Assembly: GCA_905178155.1 (NCBI GenBank)
Contig: CAJINV010000005.1
Span: 9,025,957 to 9,089,956 of the forward strand
Length of the DNA stretch: 64,000 bases
Direction of reading: 5' to 3'
Source of the DNA: Amoebophrya sp. A120
Lineage: Eukaryota > Protista > Dinoflagellata
Shown here: one piece after another, positions 86 through 53,223 of the stretch
Layout of the letters: each line of letters opens with the position of its first letter
Numbering within the stretch: the first letter of the stretch is position 1
Made by a program: the position numbers and the translations under genes
Notes under the pieces: generated by a model
What the model was told of the DNA's origin: nothing
The model's database searches: none
The model's input: only the letters and a program-made list of their open reading frames with translations

Positions 86-1666
86 TCAGTACAGCATGTT
101 TGATCGCGTCTGATGTGCGTTGTCAACACTACTGTCGTGAGACTGCTCCGACCGCATGGGGCCACCGCCCGGTGTGAGAAAATTCTCTATCAAATGTAAA
201 AATATCTGGGTCTGGAAGATCATGCAGATGTTACATGACACATGACGTCTGTAATGCATAACCTGGCATCACAGATTTTTAGTGGGCTTTCTGATGCCTA
301 TCTCGCATGAGGAATACCCTCTCCATGTAGCACAAAGTGGACCCCTCTTGCTGGTTATGCAATGCAGTTTTTTTTAGAATGCAGAGACAGCATCACAAGT
401 TGCAATCTTCCAGACCCAGACATATTTGCATTTGATATTTTCCGCAAACTCCCGGTCCTCATCCCGTTGCATGGGAAGTCCCACTATCAAATGCAAAAAT
501 GTCTGGGTCTGGAATGTTGCCGGGTTTGTCATGCATATTCTGCATGACCCAGGATGTCTGTAATGCACGACCTAGCATCACAGATTTTTGGCAGGCTTCC
601 TGATGCCTACCCCGCATGACAAATGCCCTCCCCGCGTAGCCCAAACTAGCCTCCTCCTGCTGGTCATGCAATACAGATTTTTTTAGAGTCGAAAGTTAGC
701 ATCACAAGTTCCAACCTTCCAGACCCGGACATAGTTGCAATGCATACCCACGCTGACCCCTCCGTCCAGGTTGTTGCCCGGCGTTCCGTAAAACTGGTCC
801 CGGGCGGACTGGCCGGTCTGCTATTACAATGAAAAATGCCCCCACCCCCGAACTTGGCAGCATTTGTATTGCAAACCTTGCCAAATGAAACATTCGCCCT
901 CTTGCATCTATCAGCATCACAGGTTTCCAATCGTAAACTATACACAAAAATTTGTATTGCAAAAGATCCCAGCAAGAGCGCCGCTTGTCATGCAAGCGAT
1001 GCGCTACACGCCTAGACTCTGCATCAGAAAGATAGACTCATACTCCTTTCATGCATGACAAAAAGGCTTCTTTTGGAACTTCGCATCACAAATTCTTGCA
1101 ACTTTGGGGGAGGGGGCGTTTTTCCTCTGAATATCTGCCCCAAATTATTCGTGTTTCCTCTTTGTTGCGCCGCGAAGAGGTTTTTCTGCTGATTGGCGTC
1201 AAGGTGGTGCTGGTTCATTCCCTGACCCGCGTTCTGCTGGTGCATGCCGGCTCCGGCCTGGCCCGCGGCGGCTTATCGCAACGAAAAATCCCCCCTCCCC
1301 ATATTGAAGAGGTATGTTCCCGAAAATTTGTCTTGCAAGAAGACAAAGGCAGAAGCTTCCGCCCCATTACGGAAGCGGTTTGTCATGCTGTTGGGCCTAA
1401 AGGGCAGCCGTTTGTAATGCTGAACAACTAGACGCCAACGCCCCTACCTAGTCTGGGGATCTGGCAGCAGTGCCATCCTGCAATACAAAGCTGATTTGTG
1501 TACACAAATCCAGCATCAGAAGTTCCGCTTTGATACGGGGAGGGGGGATTTTTCACTTTGATACGGCCCTGCCGGGCTCGTAAGCGTTCTCTCTCTCGTG
1601 GATCCGGCCATCTTGGTCCCATTTGGGATCGATCCAACATCTGTTAGTTGATTGTTGTCGTATCAT
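86..1666 (-). CDS. Hypothetical Q/N/G-rich protein, 5 exons separated by 4 TAT...ATA TIR introns
   Basis: Removing elements 1274-1563, 822-1133, 485-746 and 188-437, each with one TSD copy, gives one frame: MIRQQSTNRCWIDPKW...AGMHQQNAG...LGQTGQSARDQFYG...VGLPMQRDED...NFLTPGGG...NMLY-stop(86-88). The start is uncertain because a CTAACAG acceptor at 1641 is an alternative. Confidence 0.6.
188..437. mobile_element. TIR introner, family A
   Basis: TATCAAATGTAAAAATATCTGGGTCTGGAAG...CTTCCAGACCCAGACATATTTGCATTTGATA; TSD TTCTC/TTTTC. Confidence 0.9.
485..746. mobile_element. TIR introner, family A
   Basis: GTCTGGGTCTGGAA TIR; TSD CCCAC. Confidence 0.9.
822..1133. mobile_element. TIR introner, family B (AAAATCCCCCTCCCC-type TIR)
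   Basis: TAT...ATA; TSD TCTGC. Confidence 0.85.
1274..1563. mobile_element. TIR introner, family B
   Basis: TSD CGGCT/CGGCC. Confidence 0.85.
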
Positions 1667-1810
1667 GAAAAATAGCATCATGACAAACTTCCTTAGTCCT
1701 CAAAATCAATCTATGAAGTTGCGAAAACCTAAAATTTGAGTTGTACTTCCACCAACACAAGAACTATGCGCAGCACAACATTGATACTACTACAGAATAG
1801 TCATTCATCT

Positions 1811-4874: not shown

Positions 4875-7800
4875 TAACTCGGGATTTCGGAACAGCAAAT
4901 CAATGACCGACCGCTTGTCGTAGGAAGTGAAGTCGGATAGGTATCACGTTGTGGAGAAATTTCTTTTCGTGGAACTTGTCATGCGTCTTTGCATGATAGT
5001 TGAGGTGATTTTTATCTTTTCTTTCTGTTCGGAAAATTGCATGACAAACAATACCAGGCAAGCACACTCTGCATGACAAGCTCCACAGCTCTAAATCGAA
5101 TGATTTTCTTTGTGGATAGAAACTCGATATCGTGGACGGTGGCGGGTCGCATCGTTTTTGAAGATCGAGTATGGAAAGAAAAAAGTCTGTGAATTTGTCA
5201 TGCGAATAACGCCATACCCTTGTCAGGCCTGCACTGCTCGTCGCGCATGACAAACAAAGCCAATTCCTTTCCTTCTCATACACCGTTCTCCGATTCGCGA
5301 CCTCCTCCTTTGCTTCGTCGATACCTTTGATTTTTTTTTGTGAATTCCGCATTACAAATCCACCTTTTCTTCGGGACTTATTTATATTTTTGTGAATCCC
5401 GGATTACAAATATCCTCGTTCTACTTAGTACAACGAGGTTCATCTTGTCCTGTAACTGTCGTGCGTGTACTAGTTCCGCAAATCAGAAGTCGAAAACTTT
5501 CATCTATTCTGCATATCAAAATGATCGCTGTTGACCAACAATCTGAATCAACACTCTGTATACAGTGCACGAAGTATTCCTCTAAAACTTTTGGTGCGGG
5601 TGTGTATCCAAGAAAAAAACACCATCACGATCACACTTAGGAGGTTTTGCATCAGAAATTTGTCTCGCATGACAAATTTTTCTTGTGTTGCAAAAACACA
5701 AAGGGAAATCGCCTATAGCGCTTGACTGTGATGCATTTCTGCGCATGACAAAAGTTTTTGCATTGCAAAAATGTGCAAAAGTGATTGTGATGGTGTTTTT
5801 TTTTTGCATAGTGTGTTCGCCAGTGTTATCTCCAATTTTTGCACTTTTCGCTTCTCCGCTTGGACTAGCTGTATCCTGAGCAAAAACGTCCTCACACCAT
5901 GGTCAAGATGGAGAACCTACTAGACAAATCAGCTAGCTTTGGGCGTTGCCCATGACGAGTTTGGCCTCGTAATGTAGTCTTGTTTAGCTAGTTCAGCAGC
6001 ATCACAGACGTAGCCTATTATGCTGATTGGAGCATCACAAATTTCAAATCACGCTCAGAAAATGCTTCTCATGGGACTACACATGAGAAACGTTTTCAGC
6101 ATGCAGATTTGCATGACAACTATGGGGGGGACGTTTTTAAATAGGATAAGCTGCGTCAAATTCTTGATGGTCTTGCGATACCTTTTGGTTTTTGATGTAG
6201 ACAAAGACGTGCGATCGTCGGAGGGGATGCATGATAGGTCAAACAAGTTCTCAACAACAGCCGTCTATGCAAAATCTCCCATTTACCTCTCCACCATCTT
6301 TTCAGGCATGTTGCTGTGGAGTGGCATTCCCTGCTCCTCTATGGATTGCAAATATGTCTGGGTCTGGAAGGATGCGAACCCGTAATGCTGGTCTTGCACT
6401 CCTGTGAAATCTGTGTTGCATGACCAACAAAAGTGGCAGCCTCGCACGTGGTTATACAAAACGACAACTTCTCATGATGCGGAGTTCGTATGATAAAGCG
6501 CTGTGCAGACTTGTCATGCTTTCCTGCATGATCAGGAAGTGTTTTCATCATGCACATTTTAGCATCACAAATTTCCAGACCCAGACACTTTTGCATTTGA
6601 TATCGTCATATTCTTCTTCCCCCTCCTTCTCTTCGCCAACACCTGCCCCGCCCTGCTCGAGGTTTTATGCATTTTTGCAAAATTTTGATCGCAGTATCTT
6701 AATCTTATCGGTTGCCTTCAACTTGATCTATGAACTGCATTACGAGTTTTGGCAAGGAAAAACAGGCTTGTCCTAAGTAGTTGTCAGTGCCCTCAAGGGA
6801 AGACGACCTTGTGCAAATCCAGAAGGAGAATTCACTAAATCGAAGGGCAAACTAGCATTTTGCAAGTCCTAGATTCTCTAACGCCGCCATCTCCGCTTCC
6901 ATTCCGTTCCCTTCCGCCCCAAGTGTGCCCTGCTCAAATGTTACAATCTCAAGCGTTGCAATAGAATTTGGAAATCTGTGATGCAAGAAGTGCATGATCC
7001 AGCCAAGTCTCATAGGACTGAGCATGACAAGTTCCCGAGTCCCAAACCGCATTACAATCTGCCAAAATTTGCGTTGCAGAAAGTGGAATGGTCTGCGAGT
7101 CTGTCGTGCTCATTATGCAAGACGAAATCCAGATTCTATTGCAACGTTTGAGATTGTAACGTTTGAGCAGGTCATACCCAGGTTCCCCAGCATCTGGCTC
7201 CCGCTGGCGCCGCTCAAATCCTGACTGGTTGAGGTGTTGTTTCCCGCCCCGGCCGCCGACGCTGCCAGCGCTTCGTAGGCGTGCTGCTGCGCTCGCTCCA
7301 CGGAAAGCCGGAGCGACCGGTTTTGTGCCTTGGATTTTTTGATCTGGTCCTCGAGGAAGGATCGGTCGTCATCCAGTTGGTCAGCTAGTCGTTTCCATTT
7401 CTCCAGTTCCGTGAGGTATTTTTTGCACAGCTCGTCTAACCGCAGCGCTTCCTTCATAAACCACCTGATAGCTTCTTTGTTGTTGGACAAGGACAGCCAC
7501 AGCCTAGTAAACCAAAACATAGAATGTCGCTCATTTCAGAAGTTCTTTCACCTGATCTGAAAAAAAACCTGCCTGTGCAAAAAAGAACAAGAAAATTCTT
7601 CCAAGTATGTAAGTACCTCAGCTCCTTTTCCAGACTCTGTATTTTCGCTTGCCTTCTCGATTTCGTCTCGTGCTCATCCGCTTTCAATTTCAGGGAGTCG
7701 AACTCTTTCTGCACTGATATCATATCCACAGTAAATTCCCTGTACACGTACAAATGCATGACAAAACTTGCCTTCAATCCTAGTGTAGCGTGACAAGTTG

Positions 7801-8463: not shown

Positions 8464-8470
8464 GATTGCA

Positions 8471-9900: not shown

Positions 9901-12900
9901 TTAATCCACCCCGTTCTCGTTGCGGCTGCTGTTGGTCGAGCTCCGCTGCTCAGAGGAGAGCAAGAAGCTCAAACTTGTTGGTATGCCTTGCTCAGATGTT
10001 ACTATCTCAAACGTTGCAGTAGAATATGGCCATCTGTGATGCAAGAAGTGCATGATCTAGCCTACTCCCATAGGACTGCGCATGACACGTTCCGGCGTGG
10101 TCCCAAACCGCGCTACACAACTCTGGCGACATTTGTATTGCACAAAGTCGAACACTTTGCGAGTCTGTCATGCTCATTATGCAAGACAGATTCCAGATTC
10201 TAGTGTAACGTTTGAGATTGTAACACCTGAGCGGGTTATAGTCGGCGCCGCGGTGGTCTGGGTCGGGTTATTGTTCATACCAGCATCGTTCTTGAACATG
10301 GACACCGGCGCGTTGGGATTCATCGCGACAAAACCTGGCTGGTACTGCTGCTGTAACTGTTGAAATTGCTGGTGCTGCATCACGCTCGGTGACTGTGGTT
10401 GCGAGTACCTGGGATGAATTAGTTCGCGCAATCGGTTTGACCGACAAGCAGTAACTTCTCCTACCTCGTCCACGCAGCGAGCAAGAGAGCAGTGAACAAC
10501 ATGAGACGAGGGTTGATGTACTTGCTACGCATCATGCCCCGCATCACACGACCAGAAAGGAAGCAGTAAACAGCTTCTTAGGTATGAGTAACTACTTAAC
10601 TACCCGACGGCCTGCTGGGCGGACGAAGAAGCACCCATCATCGGTTGCTGCAAAAACATCGCGTGCTGCTGGTTGTTTCCAGCTGTCCCCGTTACCGGCG
10701 ACTCCACCACAAATCCCGGATTCCTCTGCCGGGTGGGGGTCGTGCCGGCGTTGTTGATCGGTTGCTGTAGCTGCATGTTGGTCGGTTGTGGCATTAGTTG
10801 CTGGTGCTGCGAGTGCTGCATTAAAACGCCGCCCGGATTAGAAGAAGTGTTCATCATGTGCACCATCGCAGCAGGATTACTGTTCATCCCATGAAGTTGT
10901 CCATTCACGCTCGCGGATACGAACTGCTTCTCCAGCCCCTCCATCTGCGCGCCCAACCGGGTCTCCACCTCCGTCAGCTTCGCGGTGAGTTGCAACAGTT
11001 TGCTATCCCCCTTCTCCTGCTTGGTGCCCTGTTTCTTGCTGCTATCTTCAAATTTGGTTTCTATCCTGATTAAAAACGTCCCCACACCAGAGTCAAGATG
11101 GGGATTTTGCAACACAAACCTAGGGGCTTTGGGAGTCACGCATGACAAGTTTCAGTCCGTAAGGTAGTGCAAGTTAGCAAGGAAAGCCGCATCACAAATC
11201 GATCTGCTGGTCCTGTTTACAGCATTACAAGTTCCCAAACATGATTGAAAATGTCTGTCATGGGGTTGCGCATCACAAATGTTCCTGTCATGGCAAATCT
11301 GCATGACAACTCTGGTGTGGGGACGTTTTTACACAGGATAGTTTCCAGTTCCGTGTTTGTCTTTTCGATTTTCTCAAAAATCTCTAGAAGTGCACAAATC
11401 CCCCTCCCCCTCATTTGTATGGCATGAACAGCAATACAAACACCAGCGCACATGGAGCCTATGCATGACAAATCGGAATCTAAGTACTTACCTTATGTAG
11501 TCCTGATTGGGCTCCCGGAATTTGTCATGCATAACAGTGTTACAAGGGAACAACTGGCTTTGGGATTTTGCATGAGAAATGAGAACGAGGGGGAGTTGTG
11601 CACTGTCATAAAATCTGCTCGGAAAATTTTCCAAACACCTCCGGGATGACGTTCATTTCCAGTTTTTCGCACTTCGCGGCCAGAGACTGGATATGCATTG
11701 CAACAGCATCGTAGCCTAATGAAAACTGCAATACAACTTGGCAGCTCAGCATACGAATTTGTAACGCGGATTTACGTTAACAACTAGATTTGTGATGCAA
11801 AACTACAATTAGCAGTTTTTTAGTACGATGCTTTTGTAACGCATACTGTAGTTTGTCAGACAGTTCCTGCTCCTTGAAGAGCCGCAGTTGGTCGTCGACA
11901 AATTTTCGCACCTTGGTGTTATCAAATGCGAAAATGTCTGGGTCTGGAAGACTGCGAGATTTGTCATGCTTGTCTGGCATGACCACGAAGTTTGTGATGC
12001 GTGTCCAAGAAGAGACGCCCTTGCCTGTCATGCAAATAAAACGCAGCTTGTCATGCGAAAAACGCAACACAAAGAAGCGCAGATATTTCTCATGCTTGGC
12101 TGTGCATTACAGAGCATTCACTACTCTCAACGCAGCATTACAAGTTTCCAGACCCAGATCGATATTTGCATTTGATAAGTGTTCATTTCTTGTAAGTTGC
12201 TGTTCAAGTGGGCGATATCCTGGGAAACCGCGATCTCGACCGCTTTTTCCGTGGAAGATTGCCGCTTTTCCATCTGTTTCACCTTGTTCAGGAATTGTTG
12301 TTCCAATTTTGAATCGATCGCTTCGAGTTTCAAACCTTGTTCCTTGCTCGCCTTTTCCAAATTTCGCATATTACAGTGAAACATGCCCCCTCCCCATATC
12401 AAAACGCAAATCTGTGATGCAGATTTGTGGTCACAAATCAGCTTTGTGATGCTGGAAGGCAAAAGATGCGGACTGTAGTGCTGCCTAGCGTGGGGAAGCC
12501 TTGCAGCTCCAGGATGACAGGAGGCAACTGGAAGTGGAAAAAAGCATGACAGATTGCCTGCAATTTGGGGCGCAGCTTCGTCTCTTGGCCTTCTAGCAAT
12601 ACAAGTCGATTTGTGTACTCAAATACAGCATCACAAATTCCGTTTCCGATATGGGGTGGACGCTTTTTTCACTTTGATATCGCAGGTCGTGCTTCTCCAC
12701 TTGCTGGATGGAGTTCTGCAGTTTCTTCACGTTCTGATTCAGGGAATTGCTCAAGTCCGTTTGGTATGCATTGCAAATATGTCTGGGTCTGGAAAAATGC
12801 TAGGTTTGTCATGCCGTGCTAGCAGGACTGTCAAGTCTGTTATGCAAGGTACCCAAAACTGCCACTTTTGTGCCAACATGCAAAAACCAAGTTTCTGATG

Positions 12901-18892: not shown

Positions 18893-18897
18893 TTAGC

Positions 18898-29805: not shown

Positions 29806-29951
29806 CCCATCTTGCAGTGACGCTGGTTGCGCAGGAACTTGGCGTCCATACCCTTGGTGGACATCTTCTTCGGGGTGCGGGTCTTCTTGATCCCGTTACG
29901 GTGGGCCTTGCGACCCTGGTTGTGGTTGGTGTGGTTCTTGGACTTGGCCAT
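29806..29951 (-). CDS. RPL29: 60S ribosomal protein L29 (eL29), main exon; short 3' exon unresolved
   Basis: [23 protein letters not shown]...[13 protein letters not shown]. Confidence 0.95.
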
Positions 29952-30420: not shown

Positions 30421-31385
30421 TCAGCCAAATGCCTCGTAAAAGTTCATCAGAAGGCGCACACAGCGCGCACGTGAAAATCCGAAACCCAAGTAGCCAAAAC
30501 CACAGAACGTGGAAATAGCTGGTAGAGAAAAGAAAATTCGCGCACCGCGTGCAAAAGTCTGACATCTAATTAGTATGGATTGTGTAGTTTGGTCATCATA
30601 GCGGAGTTGTACTTTCTGTACTTTTTCATCATAGAGCATTGCCAAAACAGACAGCTCGAAGTAGTCGTGAAAAACTGTATGCAAGGCGACTGACGTCTGC
30701 TACTAGTGGGCCAGAAGAGAGCAAAACAAATCCAAAACGGACCTGCCACTCGAGAGAGCCAAGTAGAAACGCTAATTAAACCGCATAATGGATCTGTGTC
30801 GCCACGATACCAGAAAGTCGAGTGTTTTTATGAACTAAGTTTGAGAAAAACCTCGAGGCAAAGGGTGGCAGAATGAGCAGAACGGATCTTTTTCAACGTG
30901 TCTGAAGTAGATCTGCGGGATCATTTTGTCTCATGAAAACTACCAGCGAATTTTTCGAATTCCATCAGACAAATGCCTCGTTTGTAGAATGTCGTCAAAG
31001 CGCCACTACACCCGTGCGATTCAAATCCCGCCTGACAAACAGGAAAACCCATCCCGAACGTTAGGCAAAAGTCAAAAAGCGCAAGTACAACGTAACTTCG
31101 GACATCTAATTAGTAATGGATTCGGTAAAAACAGTCATCCTTGTTGGGATCTTCGCGAGAGTCACTTCTGGAAAAAGATAATTCATCTCTATGAAGAATT
31201 TCTACCGCACGAAAACTTTTTGATCCGCGTATGATGCAGCTGTTTACGCAAAATACAAACCATCAGACAAATGCCTCGATTTTCGTCATGACGTGTGGGC
31301 GCGAAAAGGAAAAAACGCAGAACGCGTCTTCTCCAAGTCGCTTGTTGAATGGTCCGACTCGTCATCTAAAAATTTGTCTCATCAC
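30421..31385 (-). ncRNA. Three U15/snR13-like C/D snoRNAs (30421-30599, 30965-31141, 31263-31385)
   Basis: Guide CGAGGCATTTG before CTGA pairs with LSU CAAAUGCCUCG (Am2281 by D+5); D' guides ACTAATTAGATG (copies 1-2) or TAGATGACGAG (copy 3, Gm2288); C boxes ATGATGA, AGGATGA, GTGATGA. Confidence 0.85.
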
Positions 31386-35851: not shown

Positions 35852-38800
35852 TCATGAAATCTGATACGGAACCGCGTCAATTTGTCCCGCGTTGGTAAAA
35901 TAAGCCCCGTCCGGCCTGTATGCATTGCAAATATGTTTGGGTCCGGAAACCTGTGATGCAAGGAAGGGAATAGTGAGCACACTGTGATGCGCTCCCCAGC
36001 ATGACAAGTTTTTCGGTGCTTCTGAGTTGCGTACTCCGCATGAGAAACAAACCGCGTTTTTGCATGACAGAAAAGCAGACCTCTTCGGGGGCACGCGATA
36101 CAGAGTTCAGAGTCATGCCAGACTAGCATGACATGGCGCAGAATCTTCCAGACCCAGACATATTTGCATTTGATAGACTCCCGCCCACCTGCGTTTGCGG
36201 GCCGAGGTTGAAGTTTTGCAAGGTTGTGTCGTTCACGTTCCGCCGGTTCTTGATCCGATCCCCCATGCTCTTCCGCACCCGGCCGCCCCCCGCCCGGTCG
36301 GACGGCATGGAATCGTAGCCCTGCAGTTCCAGATCCCGACTCCGCATTTCGTTCTCGATCCCGTGGGCCGTCGCGCCGGTGGTCGGCGCCCGCGGCATGG
36401 ACGCGTTGGGATTTCCTTGTTTCATATTCCGCGACGCCCGTTTCGATTGCAGCATGTCCTGAATCGAACTGGCCCCGAACCCGGCGGTGCCGTATCAACT
36501 GCAAATATGTGTGGGTCCTCTGGAAGGTTGCAAGACTTGTCATGCACATTTTCCACGACCACCCATGAGGTCTGGAGTGGGGGACCGAGCATGACAGATT
36601 CTACTTTGAGGTCTCTATCATGCCTATACTGCATGAGAAACTCGTCCCCCTCAACCTGGTCAAAAGAGGACAGCGGTTCTTGGCCCTCATGCAAGACAGA
36701 TTTTTCCATGATTCAGATTGAGCATGACAAGTTGCAATCTTCCAAACTATCCAGACAAAGTTGCAATGCATATGCCCGGCTTCGCGACGATGTGGCCGGC
36801 GGCCTCGTCCGGCGTGATCCCGGTGGCGGACGACACTTGGAAATTCTTCACCGCTTTTGGTTTTTGCAATCTGTCCTTCGGCCGGTCCTCAACGAGAGCG
36901 TTTTCTAATAGCAGGAACAAGTCTTTCTCCATGGCGTCGATAAACTCCAAAATTTTCTCGTTGCTGATCCCCAAATCTAGTAATTCGTCCATCTTATCCG
37001 CGATTTTCTTCGCGAGAACCTGTGTTTCCACAAAGATCAGCTCGTACGCGTCCATTTGCGCAATTCTGTCCAAATGCTGCAACACGAAGTGCTTCAACTG
37101 CTCAAACAATTTCGTCGCGGCCTGCATGGTTCTGTGTTGCGGTTTCAAACTCTGCATGTTGCCGCGCATCGACAACCGGTTGATCACTTCATCCCTTAAA
37201 TTCACCCGACGAATTTCCCGCATGGTTAAATTTTCCGTTAATCTATCCTGAGTAAAAACATCCCCACACCAGAGTCAAGATGAGGATTTTGCAACACAAA
37301 CCTAGAACTTTTGGGGGTCACGCATCACAAGTTGCAGTCCGTAGTGTAGTGCAGCTTCGCAAGGCCAGCTGCATCAGAAATCCACCTGCTCATCCTGTTT
37401 ACGGCATTACAAATTCCAAAACACGACTAAAAATGCCTCTCCTGGTGATGCGCATTACAAATGTTCCTGTCATTGCAAATCTGCATGACAACTCTGGTGT
37501 GGGGACGTTTTTACTCAGGATATAATCTTCTCCCCACCGTGTCGACGAAGTGCTGCTTGACCAACGCTATGGATTGCAAAAGTGTCTGGGTCTGGAAGAT
37601 TGTCAGATTTGTCATGCAGCTTTTCCATGACCCATGAGGTCTGGAATGCAGGACCTAGCATGACAGATTCTGCGCGATCTCTCTCATGCCTATCCTGCAT
37701 GAGAAACTTCCTTCCGACTTGATCAAAACTGGACGACTTTTGGTAATCATGCAACACAGATTTTTGCATGCTTCAGATTTAGCATGACGCGCTGCATTCT
37801 TCCAGACCCAGACACTTTTACAGTTGATAAGCGCTTCAATCTGGTCGGTTTCAATCACGTCCTCGGTTAACAGGGAATACTCCTCAAACACGTCGACCTG
37901 GTCGACGACAAACATCTGCCTATTCGCCACGTTCGCGTGCGTGAGCTCCTTGTTTACGTGGTGGGAATGGAGGAGAAGTGCTTCCTCAATCGTTTCTCCG
38001 GAATGGTACGCCGGGCCGTCGGAGTTCGCCTCCTTCTCCATCATTTCGACGATGCGCTCGCAGAAGTCCGTGATTAACTGCCCGTCATACGCGGAAACGG
38101 ACTTCAGCTCCTTCACGATCAACTGCATTAAATTCTTCCTCCCCAGCTGTCGGTTCCGGAGCCACATCGACTATCCTGAGTAAAAACGTCCCCACCCCAG
38201 AGTTGTGATGCAGATCTGCAAGCACAAGAGCGCTTGTAATGCGCGATCCCATGAGGGGCATTATCAATCGTGTTTTGGAACTTGTAATGCTGTAAACAGC
38301 ATAAGGAGATCGATTTGCTATGCGGCTTCCCTTGCTAAACTGCACTACACTACAGTCTGCAATTTGTCATGCGTGGTTCCCAAAACTTCAAGGTTTGTGT
38401 TGCAAAATCCCCATCTTGACTCTGGGGTGGGGACGTTTTTACATAGGATATCGACTCTTCGGCGTTCATCGGCTTCATGAACTTGGTCTGCGCGCAGCGG
38501 TTATGCATTGCAAATATGTCTGGGTCGGGAAAAACATTGTGATGCAAATCTACGAATTGTGGGCGCACTGCAGTATACCGCCTAGCATGACAAGTTTTTG
38601 CGCTGCTGTGTGTTTCGTTTTTCGCATGACAAACTGCGTTTTTGCATGACAGGCAAGAGGCCCTTGTTTTCCTGTTCATGCATCACAGATTTAAGAGTCA
38701 TGCCAGACAAGCATGACAACCTTGCATTCTTCCAGACCCAGACACATTTGCAATGCGCAGCGATTGGACACGTGGCCGATGAAGTGGCAAACGACTTCCG

Positions 38801-41800
38801 CGATCTCTTGATCCCGAGAATTGATCACCATTCCGTCGGTGAGAATTCCGACCAACTCGTAGATCACTTTCCGGAACTGTTGCTCGGTTCCAAACTCGTG
38901 CTCAATTTGCTGTAAAACCCGCTGCGCTAAGAAGTCACAAGTGTCGAAAAGCGCTTTGCCCGCCAAATCCTTCTTCGGGTTTTTCCGCGACTCGATCTTT
39001 GCCAGTTCCAAAGTCTTCAGCAAGAAATTCGCCAAAACCGTGACGTCGTTCGGAAGGGCGTCGGGTGTGTGTGGCTTCAATTCCGGCTTGCACAGCTCCT
39101 GCTTCAGTTTCTCCTTCAGCTCATTGTCCAGTTTCGTCGCAAGCTTCTCCAAGAAATCCTGCACCAAGCCGGCGTCGATATCGGAGGTTGGTTGCCGGGT
39201 GAGATTCGCGGACAGATTCTGCAGAAAAGTTTCACACCTCCTGTCAATCACGTCCTTGATGACATCATTCAACACCCGGATGGCGTCGTTCTCTGGGTAG
39301 GATTCCAGCCCCGCTAACTCCTCCACACTGATGTTATCCGGGTGGCTCGCCTATCAAGTGTAAAAGTGTCTGGGTCTGGAAGATTGGAAGATTTGTCATG
39401 CACATCTGACATGACCCATGACGGCTGTGATCTATGCCCTAGCATCACAGATTTTCTGAGTGCGTCTTGATGCATATCCTGCATGAGAAATGCCCTCTCG
39501 TCCACGTGGCAAGGACTGGACTCCTATTGCCTGTCATGCAACACAGATTTTTTTAGAATCCAAAAATAGCATTACAAGTTGCATCCTTCCAGACCCAGAC
39601 ATTTTTACATTTGATATCGCCATCAGTTCGATCTGATCACCCACGTTGCAAACCAATTTCACCGGCGCGTACCGCCACCGGGCGTTCAAGGCCCGCTGCA
39701 TTAATTCGATTTCTGAAGATCGGTGGACTTCTAGCGCCAAAGCGTTCATGGCCTCGGCGACCAGCACGTCGACAGAGGCGAGTTTGGCCTTCATCAACTT
39801 GTGCGAATTCATCCCCCCTAAGATCGTGTTCTCTTTCGCGACTTTCACACCCACTTCCACCTTCCGGAGTAGTTCTAAATCCACGTTTTCCAACTTCGTC
39901 CGTTTAATAATGTCGCACTGGCCCTCGACGAAGGCCTGCACGTAGCGACAGGCTTGCAATAAAGACATTTCGTCGACGACATTGGCGTTCAACGAGTCCT
40001 GGAAATCCTCTAGGACCTCCCCATCCACGGAATTCGTCCTCTCAATCAACGTGATGACCGTATTCGCCAACGATTGACTCGTTTGGACCGCCTCGCGGGA
40101 TAAGGGGAATTGGCAGTAAGCCAACCCCCTGCCGATGATGGACGACGCGCATCCAGCCGCCATGTCGTGGATCGCACCTAACGCGTCGATTTCCGTTTCC
40201 ACTATTGGTAACAATCTCGACGGAATATCCGCGATCTGCCGGACCGCGACTGTCACTTTAGGGACGGCCAGCCACTTGCTGTCATCCGGCCCCGGTTGGG
40301 TGACAACGACGTTGAGACCGTATAATGTTTTGGAAGTGGCGATTAAGGAAATGTTTCGCTCCACCAAATCTGGCGGGACGAACTGGGTCACGACTTTGTG
40401 GACGGAGGAAACCAGATGTCGCGCCAACGCGTCGAAATCCGCGCACTGGATGTGGAGACGGTCGTGGTCTAAATATTTCGCGACGTCGACAACCTCATGG
40501 ACTAATTGTTGGCAGTCCTTGGCGTTGCACTTTAGCATGCCGTGGGTGGTGGTGCCAAAGCCTGGGCGTAAGACGTCCATGTGGTCACCCAGTTTGAAAT
40601 TGCGAACCAGCATGTCGGAGGTGATCGGATCTTTGTGCATGCCAACCCGGTGGAGGCGGCGGTTTCCCGCGTTCATGTCCCGGAGAACGGCGATTCCGCG
40701 GTAGTCGCGACGGGAGAGGCCCTGATAGTTGTAGAGGTTTTTTGAATATCATCCCTTGGCTTTGATGCATGACAAGTTCTCGGAGGACTTTCATTTTGAT
40801 CATGAAACTTCTGTTGCAGGAAATTCCGAAAAAACTCAAACTTTGTGATGCAAAAACCACACTATCAATACCGATTTCAACGTCTTCAACTCGTCCTCTT
40901 CAATTCCCTCCGTCCAGCTCTGCAGCATGTTCCGCCTGAACATCCCGTGCATGTCATGCCTTTTATTCGCCAAAAACTCCGTCCTCTGCCGCAGCCGCTG
41001 CTCGCCCCGCCAGTACATGCGGCGGACGACCGCTTTCATGGCGGCACGTTGTAAAATTTCTTCCAACAGCCCGACATCCCCCTCATATCAACTGCAAAAA
41101 TGTCTGGGTCTGGAAGAATGGAAGTTTGTTATGCTTGTCTCACATGACTCTTAAATTTGTCATGCACATTACCCAAGAGCCCCATTTTGCTGTCATGCAG
41201 AAACGCAGTTTGTCATGCAGAATAGGCAACACCTCTAAGCTCAAAAGCTTGTCATGCTGAGCCAGCATTTGTGGCCTCTTCATGATACGCCACCCAGCAT
41301 CACAACTTTCCAGACCCAGACATTTTTACAATCCATACCTCAGAAGCGGTTGCAATGGTACTGCCCATAAACTCCTGCAGCGCCGCGCGGCCGAAGAGAG
41401 CGACGATCCAATATCGCAATGACAAATCCCCCCTCCCCATATTGACGCGGTAGGTTTTCGCAAATTTGCGTTGCTGATATGTGACCACAAATCGTGTCTG
41501 TGTTGCAAGACGGCAACTCCACCGGCTCCGCTGCATTATGCAGGCGGTTTGTCAACATGCTGTTAAGCGCTACAGCACGGACGTTTTTCATGCTAAAAAG
41601 CGCCTAGATTAAAGCCTCTCTACTCAGGCTTGATATGGGTCATCTGCAGTCCTGTCCAGCAAGACAAATCTGACTTGTGTACTCAAATCCAGCATCAGAA
41701 ACTTCGTTTTCATATGGGGAGAAGGGATTTTTCCTTTTGATATCAAAGCCTTGACCGCCACGCCGGTTTCGTGTTCCAATAAATCCGCGACGCCGAGCGC

Positions 41801-44800
41801 CCGGAGGTGTTCCGCGGTTCCGCCGAGAAATTTGCTGGCCCCGACCCGGGCGTGAATAATCAGCGCCTCCGCGACGGTGTGGAGGTTCAGATTGGCCTTC
41901 GCCTTGTCAATCGCGCCGGAGTACAGGGCTTGTCGTGCCGCGAACCGACCGATTTCTTCCAAAACGGTAATGTTCGCGTCGGGCGTGACCTGTTTGTCAT
42001 CGGCAATACCGTCCTTCGGAAACATCGGGTCCGTCCCCTGCACCTGCGCGGCACCTTCGGCCGCCGCGACAACCGACGCGGCGCCGGACCGGGATAGTAA
42101 GTCCGCAAGCCTTTCGTGCGTTTGGAACTTCTCACCAAGAACTCCCGCGATGCAGTGCTCCGCGATCCCCTCGGAGGCGAGGCGGAAATCCGGTTTGGAA
42201 GCCATGTCCTTGGTCCGCAGAGCCTTGGACAGCTTGAAGTTCGTCACATTGTTGGAGGTGGTCGGCTTCATGACCTTACAATGCCGGGCGATGTCCGTGT
42301 CTTCCAACGGCGTTTTGTACTGCAACTTGCTCAACCCGGCGCCGGTTAAACCCGCGCCCAGAATCTGCTCATTGGACATTCCCATCGACTCCATCGCGTT
42401 TTCAATATTTTCCTGCTCCTCCCCCCGCAGCTGCGCCATCCGTTCCGGCTCGATCAAACGAAAGCTCGCGTCGGGCACGTAGGTCACGTCCGCCGCTTGG
42501 TACAGTGCGGATAGCTTTTATGCAATACAAATATGCCCCCACACGACCCAGTTTTTGTCATGCAAGAAGTACTTCAGCATTGTCTCCTCTGATGCGAAAT
42601 TTGCAAGGCTGCCTTCGCTGAGACCAAGACGCACTATCAAAATCTTGAATCAATTTGTCTTGCGACCCGTGCATCTGCTTATCCTTTCCAGAGGCTGCTT
42701 TTTGCAATACAAATTTCTGAGTCAGAAGGCATAATTGCTTTGCATAACTTCCCGTCCCCGAAGACATCAGAAGAACGACTCGGCTTGTAGAAGTTATCGA
42801 TGGAATTGTCCTATGCATTGCAAAAGTATCGTACTCGTACTACTTGCGTTTCTGCATTACAAATCTTTTTATCAAGGCAAATCCGCATTACAGCTTCAGT
42901 TTGTAGTGCTAGGTGAATTTGTAATGCATTTATACGAGTACGATGCTTTTGCAGTTCATATGTCCTGGGCGTGTTTGTCCTTTTCGGTCAAAAACGCAAC
43001 TTCGTCCCGGGAGTGGTCGGACTCGATCACCATCACGTCGCCGAGTTCCGGGTCGACAATCATGTGGCAGAGGCACTCTAAAAGCCTATCATCCCGGTCC
43101 ATCTCGTGCTCCATCACGAGCAGTTGCTCCGCATCTTTTAGGAATCCGGTGCAGCATAAAATGTCGACAATCCCACCCTCATCAAGTGTCATGATATCGT
43201 CCATGTGGATCATCACGATTTTCATCTGCTCGTGAATCGTCCCATCGTTATCTTTCTCCGGGCCCAGTAAGTCCAACGCGTCCTCAATGTCGCAGAACGA
43301 GGAAAACATTTCCAACAAATCCCTCGTTTTACTAACTTTCGTCTCGTCCGGGATCACCATGACAATGTCCCGTCGCGTCCGGTGCGGCTCCGTCCCGGGG
43401 ACCCGGGGCAAATGCCGGTCCTGACTCATGCCGACCACTTCTAACAACTGTGTCCGATCCCCCGCCACCTGCACGATCGTGTGGTTGTCGCGAGATTGCA
43501 AGATCGAGACCTTCGCGGGGGGGGAGTTCTGCTCCTTCTCCATGTCCCCCATGTTGTCCGCGCCGATTTCTCCGGTGGCGAGATATCGCGCTTCCGCGGG
43601 TAGTTTATCCCCACGCGTGCACGAAATGTCGGTTTGCGACTGCTTGGCCGCGCGGCCCATGAGGTCTTGCAACAAGGCGGAGTCTTGTGGTTGCCCGGAC
43701 AGGTTGTCGTTTTTCATTTTTTCGTCCCTTTTCCTCCTTTGCTCCGGGTCGATGTCCATCTCGACCCCCGGCATGAGTTCGATCGACCCCCAGAGTTGCG
43801 CCCCTTTTACCCGCAGTTGCATCCCCAACTCCTGCACGAACTCGTTCTGCCAGGAACTGTTCAACAATAACGCGTCGCGGATGTGCAACCGTCTCACTCT
43901 TTCCTCCAGCATGTTGCCGAAATGCATCAGGATTCATCAAATGCAAAAGTGTCTGGGTCTGGAAACTTGTGATGCTGGGTGGCGTCTCATGATGAGGCCA
44001 CAAATGCTGGCTTAGCATGACAAGTTTCTGAGTTTCTAGGTGTTGCCTATTCTGCATGACAAACTGCGTTTCTGCATCACAGAAAAATGGAGCTCTTGGG
44101 TAACGTGCATGACAGATTTAAGAGCCATGCCAGACAAGCATGACAAATCTCGCAATCTTCCAGACCCAGACATTTTTACAGTTGATAGGATTTCGCTCGC
44201 CACAATCTCCGGGTTGGGGACCAGTTGCATTTGCGGCTGCTCTATCAAATGCAAAAATGTCTGGGTCTGGAAAGTTGTAATGCTAAAAGTGGATGATAGC
44301 CGGACTGCAATACGCAGCCAAGCATGACAAATTTTTGAGCGGCTACGTGTTGCGTATTCCGCATGAGAAACTGCGTTTTTGCATGACAGATAGGAGAGCC
44401 GGTTCGTTCCCACGCATTACAGATTCTCGTGTCATGTCAGACATGCATGACAAGTCGCAGAATCTTCCAGACCCAGACATTTTTACATTTGATATGCTCT
44501 AAAATTCCGATTTCCAGCGCGTCGAGGAGATCGGAATGGAGTTTCCACACGAGGAATTTCAATAAGTGTTCCGCCCGTTCGTACGCCAGATCCGCGTTGT
44601 CTTTGATCTCTTCCTGTTTCAGAATCTCCTCCTCGATCATCTTCTTATTCTCCGCATTGGTCTCCATAGATTCAACCAAATCCCGGATTAATTTGCTCAT
44701 CACCGCGACTAGAGTATCTAGTGTCGCCAACCGGCAATGCTCATACCGATTCGTCCAGGTGACCCGATCGACTAAGTCCACATTCGGGCTCTGCATCCGC

Positions 44801-47800
44801 TCCAAGTACTGCGCATGGTGCACGCAGAGGGTGGCAAGAGTGACGGAAGCAATCGCTTTGGCGTGGTGGGGCATCAGCTCGATGTTCAATTTCTTCACAA
44901 GTGCATCTAATTCCGGGCGGTAGCCAACCCCGGCTTCGACGTAGAAGCAGGGCTTTTCGCAGACCGAGCGGTGGGCGAGGGAAGAGACGACCTTTGATAA
45001 AGTTTTTTTTTTTTCGTAGGTAGCTTTGCATATGACAAATAGTATTTGGATTTTCAGCATCAGAAACTTTGGCCATGCAGAAAAAAAGCAAAATTTGTCA
45101 TGCAAAACCCACTAAAAAGCCCTATACCTTCTCAAACTCCGCCACGACGTTGCTTTTCCGGGCTTTGTCATCCCAAATCCGCTTTTCAATTTGGTACAAA
45201 ACCGCCTCCACCAAAATGTCTACGTCAGATTGAAACCGCCAGGAAATCGGGGTATGCATTGCAAACATGTCTGGGTCTGGAAACTTGTGATGCTAAAGTG
45301 TGAATGATGGAAGCAATTCCGAATGCAGCCAAGCATGACAACTTTCCACTAAGCTTTCTGATGCGTAGCCCGCATGAGAAGCTGCGTTTTCGTATAGACA
45401 AAAGGGGCTGCGCATTTTGTTGGTCATGCAACACAAATTTTACAAGAATGTGAGACCTGCATTACAAGTTCGAACTTTCCAGACCCAGACGCATTTGCGG
45501 TTGATACGGGGTTCTGTCTTCCAACTTTTCCACCTGCATGGGTAGCTGCGTGTTCTCCGTCGTGACCTGGTATAGCAAAAATACCGCGTCGTTGATTTCC
45601 AAATACAATTTCTCCCGGATGGGGTCGAAAAGCGACTCATCCAAATCCATTTGGTTAAAAGTGTTCCGGAAAACGTTCAACAGATCGGTCGCACGCTTCC
45701 GAGAAGATTCGAGAATCTGGTCATGGAACTTCGCCCGCGGATCCGTGTATTCGTCGTGCTTGATCGCGTCGTAGTGTTCAAAAGCGGCGACGACGACCAG
45801 TTTCAACGTCACGTGCGCCAGAACCGCTTCTAAGAATTCTCTCTCGCTTGTTCTCGTGTGCCGCCCGATTTTCCGCTCGTCGATCATGAGTTGCACGATT
45901 TTCACTGCCGACTCGCAGATGTATTGGAAGGCGACTTCGGCCTTGGAGAGAACATCCTCCCGGCCCCCCTTGATCCCGAGCTTGACGACCACTTCGGTCA
46001 GATCTTGGTGGTAGACCGCGATCCGATCGAGTTTTTCGTCGATCGGCACGTGTATCAACTTGAAAAGTGCCCCGCTGCCCCAGAAGTGCAAACAATTTCT
46101 GATGCGAAATTCCCGAATGGAAATCAGTTTTGTCTTGCATGAAACGACCACGAGTGAGTCTCGTCCCCGATCTAGATTCTAGTCCTGTAGAGCATCTCTC
46201 GCATGACAAGCCCCACTGTTGCTGGGCCTTTTTGCAACACAGATTTTTGTGCTAGAATTCCTCAATGAAATACTTAAATCTGTGTTGCGGGAATATGCAA
46301 GATGGAGAGTTTTTCCATTCGCAACCTTTGCAATACAAACACTTTCCCTTTCTGGGGTGGGAGCTGCACTTTTCATTTTGATAACGTGCTCTACGTCTTC
46401 ATCTTCCACATCGGACATTTCCGCGCGGTCCGCCGCCGCTTCCGTCTCCACCCGCGTGATCTCGTTTTCGGATTGTTTCAGGGTATAATCCAACGCGTTG
46501 GAAATATCTTCGACTAAGCATTTCGGGTGCTCGCGACAGAGATTGTACAGATTTTCACCACAACTGTACAATTCCGAATAATCGTATTCCCCCTCGTCGA
46601 TCGCGGCGATCATTTTCTTCATGGTCCCGTCGGTTTTCAACAAATGGATCACATCATCGGCGATCTCCTGCTTCACCAATTCGGGGTGACTTAACGGCAA
46701 CGTCGAGTCAAAGTGCGGCGGGTGCTGCATGAGCTTAGCCACCTGCTCGATGACCAGTTGTCGCCTCACGTCGTCGAGGAAATATCGGTTGGTCGCTTCT
46801 AGGAACATGTTGGCAAGTTGTGTCCTTCGTTGGAATATCAAATGCAAATATGTCTGGGTCTGGATGAAACTTGTGATGCTAAAACATGGATGAGCCTGGT
46901 GCTTTCAAGTCCAGCCAAGCATGACAGGTTTATTTGGCGCCGACTGATGCGTATGACGCATGACAAACTGCGTCTTTGCATCACAAAAAGGCAAAACTTT
47001 TGCTGGCTATGCAACACAAATTTTTCAGGAATGCTAGACCCGCGACACAAGCTCCACTTTTCCAGACCCAGACATATTTGCAATGCATATGGAAAGTCGC
47101 AACACAAACGCCCTGCTGGTCCTCCGTTTCCTTGTTGAAAAAGTCGCGGATTTGCAAACCCGGCTGGCGCTCGTAGGCGGACTGATATTGATTTGGAATT
47201 GGTGCATGACAAAAACAGGGTAATGTGCGGATTGTCCTGCATGACACATTTCGAAATTTTTGGAAACCAAAACAACCTCTACTCGGCATTTCTGCATCAC
47301 AAAAGCGAATAAAACTACTCATGATTCATGGAGCAGATTACGCATGACAAATAACCCATAGTACCTTCCCCATGCTGCCCCGGGAATTTTCGCTGATCGC
47401 TAAACCGCCACCCTGCGTCGCGTACACCGTCGCGCCATCACCGATTTTTCTATGCATTGCAAAAGTATCGCTCTAGTAGAAATAGCAGCACAAATTTTTC
47501 CTGAAGGAAAAATGGAATTTGTAATGCTGAATGAGCTCAGGAACCAGGTTTGTCATGCACGACTGCAATTTCTACGAGTGCGATACTTTTGCCTTTGATA
47601 TTTCCGACCGCGGAGCGATTTTTTCGGTTTGCCCTTCCCCGGCACTTGGTTCAGTTTCTCCGCTTGTTTGAAGTATTTGATCCGAGAAAACCGTTCTTTC
47701 GGGTTTTTGTACAGAAAATCCCCGCCGTCCCCGACCGCGGCCTTCCAATCCACCTCGTCGTACAACCAGGACAACGACCCCGCGTTTTTGTCCTTCACGC

Positions 47801-49703
47801 CAAACATGTTCATGTCCTTCCGAGCGCCGTAGATATCCACGCCGAGGTTGTTCGTCTCGTCAAACAACTTCGGGTCCACATCGATCAGGACTTTCTGGTT
47901 CTGACGAAGCTTCTCCGCTTCCTGATTGATGATCGCGGAGGAATCCCCCGCGGAAGTGTCATCCACGACGGAGTCCGCGTCCTTCGCATTTGCCATGTAG
48001 TCCCACTGGCGGACTAATTCCGATGGCTTCCCATCCTGCAAATAGCTCAAGGTCAACTCGGCCGGGTGCTTTAACGGTAACTCCTGGGCCTGCTCCGTGT
48101 GGTCGGTGAAGACCCAGTGGGTGCCGTCCTCGGATTTTTTGATCGTTTGCTGGATGTAGGGGGAGATCTTCGTCGCGGAGTCACTCGCGCGTTTGATGTC
48201 GGACCGTAAGTCGGAATCGTCGAAGAGACCTTTCACCCCGCTTTTCGGATCGGTGACAACAGACGAGGAACTGTCGTCGGTGATAGAGCCCAACGCGTTC
48301 TTCCCGTACGGCACGATTTGGAACGTCCCCTGCTCGTTCTTGTGGATCTCCTCCGATTGGAGTAACGACGTTTCGAGCGAAACGACATCCAAAGTCGCGA
48401 GTCTCTGCACCAGCTCCGGTTCGAGAAAGGCTAAAGGGCCTTATCAAGTGCAAATATCTCTGGGTCTGGAAATTTCAATTTGTGATGCTAAAATGTGCAT
48501 GATGAAAACGCTTCCTCATGCAGGAAAGCATGACAAGTCATCTGCGCAACGCTTTATCATACACAGTTCGCATGACAAACTCCGTTTTTGTATGACGTGA
48601 GAGGCTGCCACTTTTGTTGGTCATGCAATACAGATTTCACAGGAATGCAAGACCAGCATTACAAGTTCCAACTTTCCCGACACAGACATTTTTGCATTTG
48701 ATAGGCCCTTCACCGTGACAAACTTTTTCCCAGTAGAATCCGGCTCGGTCATGTGCTCCTTGTCCTTTCTTAACAACACCGCAATCGAGGCTTTCACCGC
48801 CTGGATGCTGTTCTGGTACTCGAATTTGTCCGCGATTTTCGGGTGCTGCCGCGCGATCTCGTCGTAGATTTGCTTCACCAAAGTTTGCAGAAACGGGTTG
48901 GCTTTTTTGAAAGCCGAGTCCCGATCTTTGTACTGGGGCTTCGTGCCTTCCGGGACGAACCCGAGTGGGCCGAAGAGCATCATGTGCCACAAGCGGGAGG
49001 CGAGCGTCGCCAAGGCCATTTCCAAATCCTTCAGCTCCGAGTAGAGCAACAGCAAAATCCTCGCCGTGGCGGAGATCGCCTCCTTCCGGTCGGACTCGAT
49101 GTCGTCTAATAGAGTAACCGTCATGGCCAACGGTAATTCCAGCAGGTGTTGCGACTTTGCCGAGTCGAAGGGGTGGAGATTTTCATTGGACTGTAAAAAG
49201 CCGTGGATCGTCTGCACCCTCGCGTAAAACATCCCCGTTTGCGGGTCCACTGGGTTGACCTCGACGACTTCCCCAGGCTCGATCACATCAATGACCTGCT
49301 TCGCGGTGTCGACATCATACAAATCGAGCTTTGTCGTCGCCAAACGCGGTTCGACCTGTTGTAAGTAAAACCGCATCATCGAAGTTTTCGTCTTCTTAAT
49401 TTCCGAGGACTTCAAGCCCTGATCGGTTGGCCTGCGGAGTCTTCCCTCTTTATCCGCGGTGGAGCTGTGGCGGGATTTGCGCTCCGCCGGTTCGCTTGCT
49501 TCCGCAGCGGAACCGCGAGTAGCGCCGAGCGTCGCAAACCCGCCTGCCATGGTGCCGGGTTCGTTGCTCTGCGCCGGCCCGGCGGAGGAGTAGCGGGGCG
49601 AGTCTTTCTTACTGGAATCGCTGGACTGCTTGGATTTCTTCTTCGACGAGCCGCTGCTGGAGGAGCTGCTGCTCGACGAAGAGGACGAGGAAGAAGATGA
49701 CAT
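35852..49703 (-). CDS. Very large hypothetical protein (about 22 exons, mostly TIR introns)
   Basis: Starts with poly-Ser ORF 48704-49703; long GC-rich open exons (47601-48436, 42961-43929, 41743-42513, 39617-40690, 38760-39346) each end at a TAT...ATA element; could be more than one gene. Confidence 0.6.
35919..36175. mobile_element. TIR introner, family A
   Basis: flanks GCCTG/GACTC. Confidence 0.82.
36493..36772. mobile_element. TIR introner, family A
   Basis: TSD TGCCG/TGCCC. Confidence 0.85.
37244..37522. mobile_element. TIR introner, family C
   Basis: TSD TAATC. Confidence 0.9.
37568..37829. mobile_element. TIR introner, family A
   Basis: TSD AACGC/AGCGC. Confidence 0.88.
38172..38450. 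mobile_element. TIR introner, family C (opposite orientation to 37244)
   Basis: TSD TCGAC. Confidence 0.9.
38502..38759. mobile_element. TIR introner, family A
   Basis: TSD GCGGT/GCGAT; right end GCA instead of ATA. Confidence 0.8.
39352..39616. mobile_element. TIR introner, family A
   Basis: TSD TCGCC. Confidence 0.9.
41086..41337. mobile_element. TIR introner, family A
   Basis: TSD CCTCA. Confidence 0.9.
41412..41742. mobile_element. TIR introner, family B
   Basis: TSD TCCAA/TCAAA. Confidence 0.88.
42519..42746. mobile_element. Degenerate TAT...ATA intron, family B-like
   Basis: TATGCAA/TTGCATA; flanks GCTTT/ACTTC. Confidence 0.6.
42812..42960. mobile_element. TIR introner, family G
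   Basis: TSD TGTCC. Confidence 0.88.
43935..44187. mobile_element. TIR introner, family A
   Basis: TSD GGATT; left end CAT. Confidence 0.88.
44243..44494. mobile_element. TIR introner, family A
   Basis: TSD TGCTC. Confidence 0.9.
45253..45506. mobile_element. TIR introner, family A
   Basis: TSD CGGGG. Confidence 0.9.
46053..46383. mobile_element. TIR introner, family B
   Basis: TSD ACGTG. Confidence 0.85.
46836..47089. mobile_element. TIR introner, family A
   Basis: TSD TGGAA. Confidence 0.9.
47451..47600. mobile_element. TIR introner, family G
   Basis: TSD TTTTC/TTTCC. Confidence 0.85.
48442..48703. mobile_element. TIR introner, family A
   Basis: TSD GGCCT/GGCCC. Confidence 0.88.
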
Positions 49704-53126: not shown

Positions 53127-53223
53127 CCTCTTTTTTTCGTCGATGGTGATCCGGGGCTACTCGTGAAACACAAGATATTTCCAAAAATCGTTCTGAAACT
53201 GGTAGTACTTGAAAATCCCGTCA

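Follow-up and report, generated by a model that had tools for sequence, protein, structure and literature searches.

A 64,000-nucleotide (nt) stretch of the dinoflagellate Amoebophrya sp. A120 (contig CAJINV010000005.1, positions 9,025,957 to 9,089,956, the whole of which is called the window here) raises the question why short inserted introns, the introners, share one internal word while the interiors of their families are otherwise unrelated. A preliminary description of the window, made from the sequence alone, had reported that the word GCAWNACAA and its reverse complement mark all intron types, namely every introner family, GT-AG introns and the spacers of small nucleolar RNAs (snoRNAs), and had proposed a signal recognised by the host. 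The word is real and occurs far above chance in the window, and its sites lie on a lattice of about 16 base pairs (bp), at 16, 32, 48 bp and so on, in either orientation, both in the elements and in non-mobile non-coding DNA. The elements themselves are known; the shared internal word and the lattice appear to be undescribed.

The word and the elements that carry it

Strict matches to GCAWNACAA number 199 in the window (109 on the plus strand and 90 on the minus strand), whereas 100 dinucleotide shuffles gave 6.89 on average and never more than 12, which confirmed the enrichment. Of these, 197 lie before position 48,700. By annotation, 152 copies were assigned to element DNA (14.5 kilobases, kb), 40 to other non-coding DNA (21.0 kb) and seven to predicted exons (28.5 kb), two of the seven being located in a snoRNA cluster where the exon was mis-called. 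The four long intergenic stretches of the window contain 0, 2, 0 and 1 strict copies. Fifteen of 15 sites named in the preliminary description were found within a few bases of their reported places, all outside element-masked DNA, with the region 22494-22530 consisting of two sites, at 22490 and 22523. A long terminal repeat (LTR) retrotransposon serves as an internal negative control, since only one copy (61676) is present in its 10 kb of open reading frames (ORFs; 53224-63558), as had been noticed before.

All motif statistics beyond these window-only counts pool the window with 469 kb of non-redundant related sequence (170 loci, GC content 0.489), which was obtained by a metagenome scan with the end of one element family, family 0. 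The related loci have element families in common with the window (76-96% identity), whereas unique sequence is not shared. Since they were found through its end, family 0 is over-represented (221 of 450 elements), and the spacing tests were therefore done per family. From 471 candidate elements, 450 were kept at a score of at least 18, a few of which are likely foldbacks or satellites. Exons and GT-AG introns were predicted ab initio by a hidden Markov model (HMM) self-trained on the element-excised DNA of 61 sequences of at least 1.5 kb. The first pass of the model put false introns into the retrotransposon ORF; an in-frame stop, scores of at least 12 for both flanking exons and a length of 60-600 nt were required, which reduced 148 introns to 75, some of which may be false or paralogous. 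Private changes of a copy were measured against its three nearest neighbours.

In the pooled sequence, the consensus was extended to H-GCAT-B-A-S-A-R-R-Y, with GCATBASAR as its central part, and GCATGACAA alone occurs 650 times, compared to 8.7 expected occurrences. Sites with a position weight matrix (PWM) score of at least 10 reach a density of 18.4/kb in elements, 3.5/kb in predicted GT-AG introns and 0.4/kb in exons. The site density in short intragenic gaps is 1.8/kb, compared to 0.46/kb in gaps between opposite-strand exons. The word had been called rare in exons, which is true of the strict copies; however, the 15 exon sites observed are at background level (11.5 under a codon-resampling null), with no depletion. 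Among 254 copies, private substitutions amount to 2.1% at the core positions 1, 2, 3, 6 and 8, compared to 5.9% in the element interiors and 3.6% in the terminal repeats. Changes had been thought to concentrate in the two central bases. This was found for position 5, which is the sole free base (6.5%), but not for position 4, which is constrained (3.0%); positions 7 (C/G) and 9 (A/G) are half-free (about 4.2%).

Full-length elements number 52 in the window; they are 142-479 bp long and have terminal inverted repeats (TIRs) starting with TAT and 5-bp target duplications, in agreement with the published description of introners of the A120 type (TAT…ATA ends, 5-bp duplications). In the pooled set, a site (PWM score of at least 10) was identified in 444 of 450 elements, and all 14 families with at least three copies carry the motif, with 1.9-5.9 sites per copy; the earlier observation that an element holds several copies, mostly distributed over both strands, was thereby reproduced. 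Three of the six motif-less elements have no target duplication. The target duplication is perfect in 323 of 420 elements and matches at four of five positions in 69, and shows no sequence preference. Of 349 placeable elements, 306 interrupt predicted coding exons and only 15 lie in non-coding DNA, with exons making up about 60% of the cleaned sequence. Removal of the element plus 5 bp left an open frame in 67 of 104 cases, compared to 55 for removal plus 4 bp and 49 for removal plus 3 bp. In one of the related loci (L046:1761-2028), an element with TIRs, ends of the TAT type and a duplication matching at 4/5 positions carries no motif.

The families had further been described as having no other similarity. 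For their interiors this was verified, since with the motifs and the outer 16 bp masked, a cross-family BLAST match was obtained for 0 of 91 family pairs (41 of 91 unmasked); a match to the own family was retained by 357 of 430 masked copies. The families have in common, however, the TAT…ATA ends, the 5-bp duplication and mostly an A-tract. The family-weighted end profile reads T 98%, A 98% and T 99%, TAT being selected for by the element finder, followed by 69-89% A at positions 11-14; the A-tract (positions 11-15) is present in the ends of most families and missing in three. Counted from the element end, the first motif site lies at a distance of 30-52 bp in 729 of 888 cases; in only six is it nearer. 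The possibility that the element end is itself a degenerate motif was rejected, as the resemblance is weak (5.2 of 10 positions at offset 3, equal at offset 4). Among the longest 139 of 188 ORFs of the related loci, neither a transposase or integrase domain (Pfam, E≤1e-5) nor an autonomous element was found.

The lattice and the copies outside the elements

The regular spacing of the sites had escaped the preliminary description. Of the 14 family representatives, 13 contain a same-strand pair at a distance of 31-33 bp, where the null gave 2.2 on average and at most 7, and opposite-strand pairs cluster at 15-17, 33-34, 46-50 and 65 bp. A period of 16.25 bp fits all three orientation classes with a phase near zero (R=0.43 versus 0.14). 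Since this period had first been chosen post hoc from the data, the test was redone as a period scan with one random typical copy per family, in which 19 of 20 draws peaked at 14-18 bp, all with p≤0.05. Weak sites occupy the lattice positions +/-16 and +/-32, and degenerate opposite-strand copies are located at the midpoint of the 31-bp spacers. In non-coding DNA outside the elements and the snoRNA cluster, the lattice was identified with R=0.42 at 16.25 bp for 59 pairs, a value reached by 0 of 2000 jitter controls, and 13 of 44 same-strand pairs are spaced by 31-34 bp (p=5e-9). Phasing at 10.5 bp, the helical repeat, was considered as an independent signal; it is present in the elements (R=0.35) but absent outside (R=0.07), and was therefore ascribed to the 16/32 lattice as a secondary effect.

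Non-mobile copies were found in a tandem cluster of C/D-box-like RNAs (Table 1). Three snoZ161/Z228-like matches were obtained for this cluster (E 0.0085-0.11, below the gathering score), and the other kinds were assigned from their boxes by eye; at the gathering threshold, Rfam gave no match in the window. In four of four C-family copies, GCA..ACAA is kept at 20-25 nt behind the D box, and the central dinucleotide is different in each of them. The flanks of these sites have a pairwise identity of 32%, with 2 of 42 columns invariant, and no element match was found in them. Of all the results, this retention of the core points most strongly to selection in place, although it comes from a single cluster. 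In the D family, two of three copies keep a site pair 31-34 bp apart. One B-family spacer has antisense sites, and the snoRNA-spacer copies are mostly in RNA sense.

A second cluster of C/D-box-like RNAs, located at 30400-31370 of the window on the minus strand and with one SNORD15-like member (E 0.014), has almost no strict copy. Between 24790 and 26100, also on the minus strand, four copies of an RNA of about 170 nt were noticed, with a D box and no clear 5' C box. It has no Rfam match at E≤1 and is, by these sequence features, a candidate for a divergent small nuclear or nucleolar RNA. A block of about 60 bp, duplicated at 20210-20270 and 21575-21630 in a motif-free intergenic region, is possibly a small RNA gene (by eye).

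Among the predicted GT-AG introns, a site was identified in 24 of 75 (shuffle mean 3.7), with 9 of 11 in the window and 15 of 64 in the related loci. The enrichment in introns survives masking, but with these numbers the statement that all intron types are marked holds for nearly all elements and is overstated for the GT-AG introns. Of the copies ascribed to canonical introns, those at 17293 and 17367 are inside a predicted GT-AG intron (17257-17410), which is weakly supported, while 2667, 28226 and 28649 are non-coding but outside the introns called by the HMM. In the 306 exonic elements, 655 sense and 727 antisense sites were counted, with 26 elements being sense-only and 25 antisense-only.

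Another word, CACGAC, was found to be enriched on the sense strand of the predicted GT-AG introns (11 of 75 introns, compared to 1.6 in shuffles; 12 sense versus 4 antisense copies), with five copies at 66-72 nt from the acceptor. By these counts, it is a better candidate for a branch point or splicing signal than GCATBASAR.

Known systems and candidate readings

The window elements resemble the A120 introners of Farhat et al. 2021 (PMC7789003). The available part of that source describes introners of about 250 nt in many families (1,954 are reported), with inverted-repeat ends composed of TAT, seven variable bases and AAA, with borders of 3-5 nt direct repeats and with insertion into genes; 15% of the A120 canonical introns show inverted-repeat/direct-repeat (IR/DR) organisation. 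The likeness extends to the TAT/AAA ends, the 5-bp direct repeats, the gene insertion and canonical introns of the same organisation. In contrast, the published text, in its available part, contains only terminal IR and DR motifs; a common word in the interiors, a lattice and copies in snoRNA spacers are not mentioned there. The strings GCATG and CATGAC have 0 occurrences in the available main and supplement text of PMC7789003, the figure logos of which (Fig. 3, S25) could hold the motif. For A120, long TIR elements with integrase-like ORFs (family 38) have been reported in the available part of Gozashti et al. 2025 (PMC12130899), and neither motif 9-mer is present in 12 of its 14 supplement files. 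For AT5, canonical introns are reported to make up 99.98% (PMC11453091). A literature search gave no description of the motif; figures, bioRxiv supplements and subscription papers could hold one. Euglenid nonconventional introns are similar in their MITE-like origin (miniature inverted-repeat transposable element), their non-canonical junctions and the joining of their ends by terminal base pairing. They differ in their conserved CAG/CTG, which is terminal and paired, and an internal array independent of strand is not among the features given in the available part of the source (PMC11282704).

GCATBASAR contains GCATG and the pattern T-N-A-C, but is strand-independent and has a free position 5. 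Spliceosomal branch points and the intronic (U)GCAUG elements of RBFOX are short words enriched in introns, and both are strand-specific. The TGCATGCA-type motifs bound by ApiAP2 in the sister lineage, the apicomplexans, have a GCATG core, are upstream regulatory and are enriched in non-coding DNA. Unlike these, GCATBASAR is asymmetric and nearly absent from the long intergenic stretches.

We propose tentatively that GCATBASAR is recognised by a protein which is encoded by the host, perhaps after domestication, and is exploited by the introners. The invariant bases around a free centre, the strand independence and the rigid lattice suggest that neighbouring molecules of this protein would load next to each other on double-stranded DNA, coating the introners and some other transcribed, removed segments. 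Its footprint would be about 16 bp, centred on the free base with T-N-A as a pseudo-dyad, and a bound array would mark a segment in either insertion orientation. In the RNA, the family-specific terminal repeats would form a fold-back structure that defines both cut points. Lineages would keep two to six sites, with unmarked exon insertions being purged or with the same protein aiding mobilisation. A protein-binding site was one of the two forms that had been suggested for the signal, and it is supported by the invariant flanks around the free base, a conservation above that of the terminal repeats, the lattice and the persistence in non-mobile DNA. For a host factor argue, with the same reserve, the snoRNA spacers, the lattice outside the elements, the higher density in intragenic than in intergenic gaps and the published record for A120, which lacks both transposases and U1: the available part of Farhat et al. 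2021 (PMC7789003) names putative transposases in A25, not in A120, and no U1 small nuclear RNA. A further step would be that the host protein, polymerised on the 16-bp GCATBASAR lattice, tells a U1-less machinery during transcription which segment is to be removed; this extension is unlikely.

Several results weigh against a host protein. The case for host use is built on one snoRNA cluster, in which the site has been lost from one of the three copies of the D family. No site is present in 51 of 75 predicted GT-AG introns, which does not bear out the universal intron-definition signal of the preliminary description. The motif-bearing ones may be old introners or relics, since their ends are introner-like: AT[AC]…AG 3' ends were found in 13 of 24 motif-bearing versus 11 of 51 motif-less introns (p=0.008) and a GTAT start in 13 of 24 versus 16 of 51 (p=0.08), while terminal repeats were not measurable in the motif-bearing introns. 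The exons are not depleted of the word, so that a single site does not cause harmful splicing. The core is equally conserved in elements located in non-coding DNA (n=13; 2.3% change) and in exonic elements (2.5%). In copies with mismatched duplications, which are older on average, the change rises from 2.2 to 3.1% in the core and from 6.4 to 7.4% in the interior, about 0.9 points each with an error of about 0.5, as is predicted by neutral decay after insertion. Only one pair of insertions with shared flanks was identified, and its members are 100% identical and thus uninformative on decay after insertion.

The strongest rival, close to the host-factor reading and absent from the preliminary description, is that the word is a subterminal and internal binding site of a transposase which mobilises all TAT…ATA elements with 5-bp duplications, with the copies in GT-AG introns and spacers being relics, some perhaps co-opted. 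This is a serious possibility, though we give it rather less credence than an even one. It is consistent with the near-universal presence of the motif in elements, its subterminal onset and the equal decay of core and interior. The shared end is short and variable beyond TAT, so that the specificity of a transposase must come from elsewhere. The site-free two-thirds of the GT-AG introns and the undepleted exons also fit, as do the element-like ends of the motif-bearing GT-AG introns, which agree with the 15% of A120 canonical introns of IR/DR organisation (PMC7789003, available part). A precedent is known from the Lemi1 proteins, which bind the subterminal repeats of the Emigrant MITE cooperatively, in direct and reverse arrangement; the available part of the same source (PMC1636448) cites Sleeping Beauty, pogo, CACTA and hAT for subterminal repeats. 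As in Emigrant, short repeats in both orientations are located inside the ends; there, the arrangement matters, binding is cooperative and non-autonomous elements share the repeat. However, the repeat in Emigrant is similar to one half of the TIR, which itself acts as the main determinant (PMC1636448, available part), whereas GCATBASAR is barely end-like, spans the whole element, is present in 14 families with different TIRs and is also found in non-mobile DNA. A transposase site leaves the core retention in the four snoRNA spacers unexplained, and the searched ORFs of the related loci and the weak resemblance of the element end to the motif also speak against it.

A function of the word in RNA, either in protein-bound stems of inverted copies or as the site of an RNA-binding protein, is improbable, and only slightly less so when all RNA-level readings are taken together. 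Inverted pairs 15-18 bp apart are common and foldable, and in predicted folds of 150 exonic elements 75% of the motif bases are paired, 37% with another motif; in predicted folds of exonic elements the terminal repeats pair with each other at 81% of their bases. The RNA sense of most snoRNA-spacer copies would also fit, but these copies are tandem duplicates and not independent. Divergent pairs agree at positions 4, 7 and 9 above within-family shuffles; this agreement is gone among homologous sites (p 0.25-0.60). At position 5, homologous sites agree in 69 of 183 pairs versus 60 (p=0.001), but 114 of 183 (62%) are mismatched, and the small excess is probably subfamily structure. At the central bases, no excess was seen either for the outermost inverted pairs or for convergent ones, and the central-dinucleotide identity of inverted partners (27-32%) is not above within-family shuffles. 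Strong sites on one strand only were found in 51 of the 306 exonic elements, evenly split, so that the RNA would need either word to function. The multivalent pairing unit, the second form suggested for the signal, has little support and was mostly rejected, apart from the residual signal at position 5.

It is very improbable that all families and the motif-bearing introns descend neutrally from one repetitive element with a 16- or 32-bp unit. The ends and the duplication length common to all families and the degenerate copies midway in the 31-bp spacers are consistent with such an origin, but common ancestry was not detected: masked copies match their own family, yet no other one, and substitutions accumulate in the core at roughly one third of their rate in the interior, which implies that the core is selected, whatever its origin. 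Least probable of all is that the word is the branch-point sequence of the organism, present on both strands so that elements splice either way, a reading suggested by the central T-N-A-C, which resembles the yUnAy consensus, by a few predicted introns with a sense copy 12-36 nt from the AG and by a sense 3'-most site in 206 of 302 exonic elements, but ruled out on strand and distance, since GT-AG introns have 19 sense versus 25 antisense sites, the distance to the 3' splice site is scattered over 12-317 nt, 25 exonic elements are antisense-only and two-thirds of the GT-AG introns are without the word. The lack of a strand bias and of a fixed splice-site distance also makes a single-strand RNA word unlikely.

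The available part of Farhat et al. 2021 (PMC7789003) leaves open how the tens of thousands of A120 introns without GT-AG borders or a detected U1 are removed, and what mobilises the introner families. The motif is a testable lead on the splicing or the spread of these introns. One internal word with fixed spacing in 14 of 14 families offers a specific pulldown bait and a mutation target, and identifies either the recognition code of the missing transposase or a host factor marking introns on DNA. It may also flag canonical introns descended from introners, and would then be a simple annotation feature for these genomes. If a host protein marks segments for removal as proposed, any insert with an array and a fold-back end would become an intron, whatever its border dinucleotides, and an orientation-free intron code at the DNA level would account for thousands of unrelated introner families.

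Features of the window

Table 1. Positions of introner-type elements, predicted introns, snoRNA-cluster sites and the LTR retrotransposon in the window (introns predicted ab initio)
Feature	Position	Strand	Remarks
Span of 52 full-length TIR introner-type elements and 197 of 199 strict copies	188..48703	.	
Family-0 element (…ATGTCTGGGTCTGGAA ends)	44243..44494	.	sites 32-, 79+, 118+, 138+, 171+, 202+; perfect 5-bp duplication
Family-1 short element	21994..22143	.	sites pointing inward 34+, 52+, 68-, 99-
Family-2 element	27414..27625	.	
Family-3 element	37244..37522	.	six one-strand sites 47, 78, 127, 160, 208, 239; steps 31, 49, 33, 48, 31
Family-4 element (ATCCCCCCTCCCC ends)	14743..15071	.	
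Family-10 element	9982..10240	.	4 sites; ends without A-tract
Family-12 element	5605..5810	.	sites 44+, 62+, 78-, 121-, 138+; 16-18-bp steps
Predicted GT-AG intron	13708..13824	-	two antisense and one sense site, spaced 32 and 16 bp
Predicted GT-AG intron	22422..22582	-	two sense sites 22490, 22523, 33 bp apart
Predicted GT-AG intron	22779..22921	-	three sense sites, spaced 32 and 48 bp
Predicted GT-AG intron	23253..23380	-	inverted site pair, 16 bp apart
Predicted GT-AG intron	40722..40871	-	2 sense and 1 antisense site; inner TAT…ATA symmetry suggests old element (by eye)
Predicted GT-AG intron	44992..45127	-	1 sense and 1 antisense site
Predicted GT-AG intron	47182..47364	-	three sites, all antisense to transcript; ab initio HMM
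Tandem cluster, four kinds of C/D-box-like RNA copies	23900..27400	-	10 strict copies, all in spacers except 24892
Spacer pair GCACGACAA … GCATGACAA	24547..24586	-	31 bp apart, between two D-family RNA copies
GCACGACAA behind RNA copy C1	24766..24774	-	about 22 nt behind D-box position
GCAACACAA behind RNA copy C2	25329..25337	-	
GCATGACAA behind RNA copy C3	25690..25698	-	
GCACTACAA behind RNA copy C4	25919..25927	-	
LTR retrotransposon	52084..64000	-	LTRs 52084-52347 and 63737-64000, 99.2% identical; integrase match weak, E 0.001

Some elements of the window show peculiarities of their own. An element at 42519-42749, with a 3/5 duplication, has a perfect motif copy right after the terminal TAT (by eye); it was missed by the element finder, and the division of the window by annotation therefore includes its four strict copies among the non-coding ones. 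Two family-0 elements contain the same foreign insert of about 60 bp, at 17526-17590 and 18545-18605 (by eye), and in the element at 17491-17969 this insert is extended to about 220 bp (by eye). The LTR retrotransposon is young, with an open frame of 2,925 codons and no introner inserted.

In a scan of viral contigs for triple motifs, 19 distinct loci were obtained, mostly of low GC content and with simple tandem repeats where the match was shown, and these were judged unrelated. Pfam identified no useful family for the ORFs of the window. For an SNF2 protein encoded by one of the related loci, the best named match is the dinoflagellate Effrenium voratum, with 34% identity. An uninterrupted coding stretch for ribosomal protein L29e, a eukaryotic gene, was identified at 29811-29951 on the minus strand of the window.

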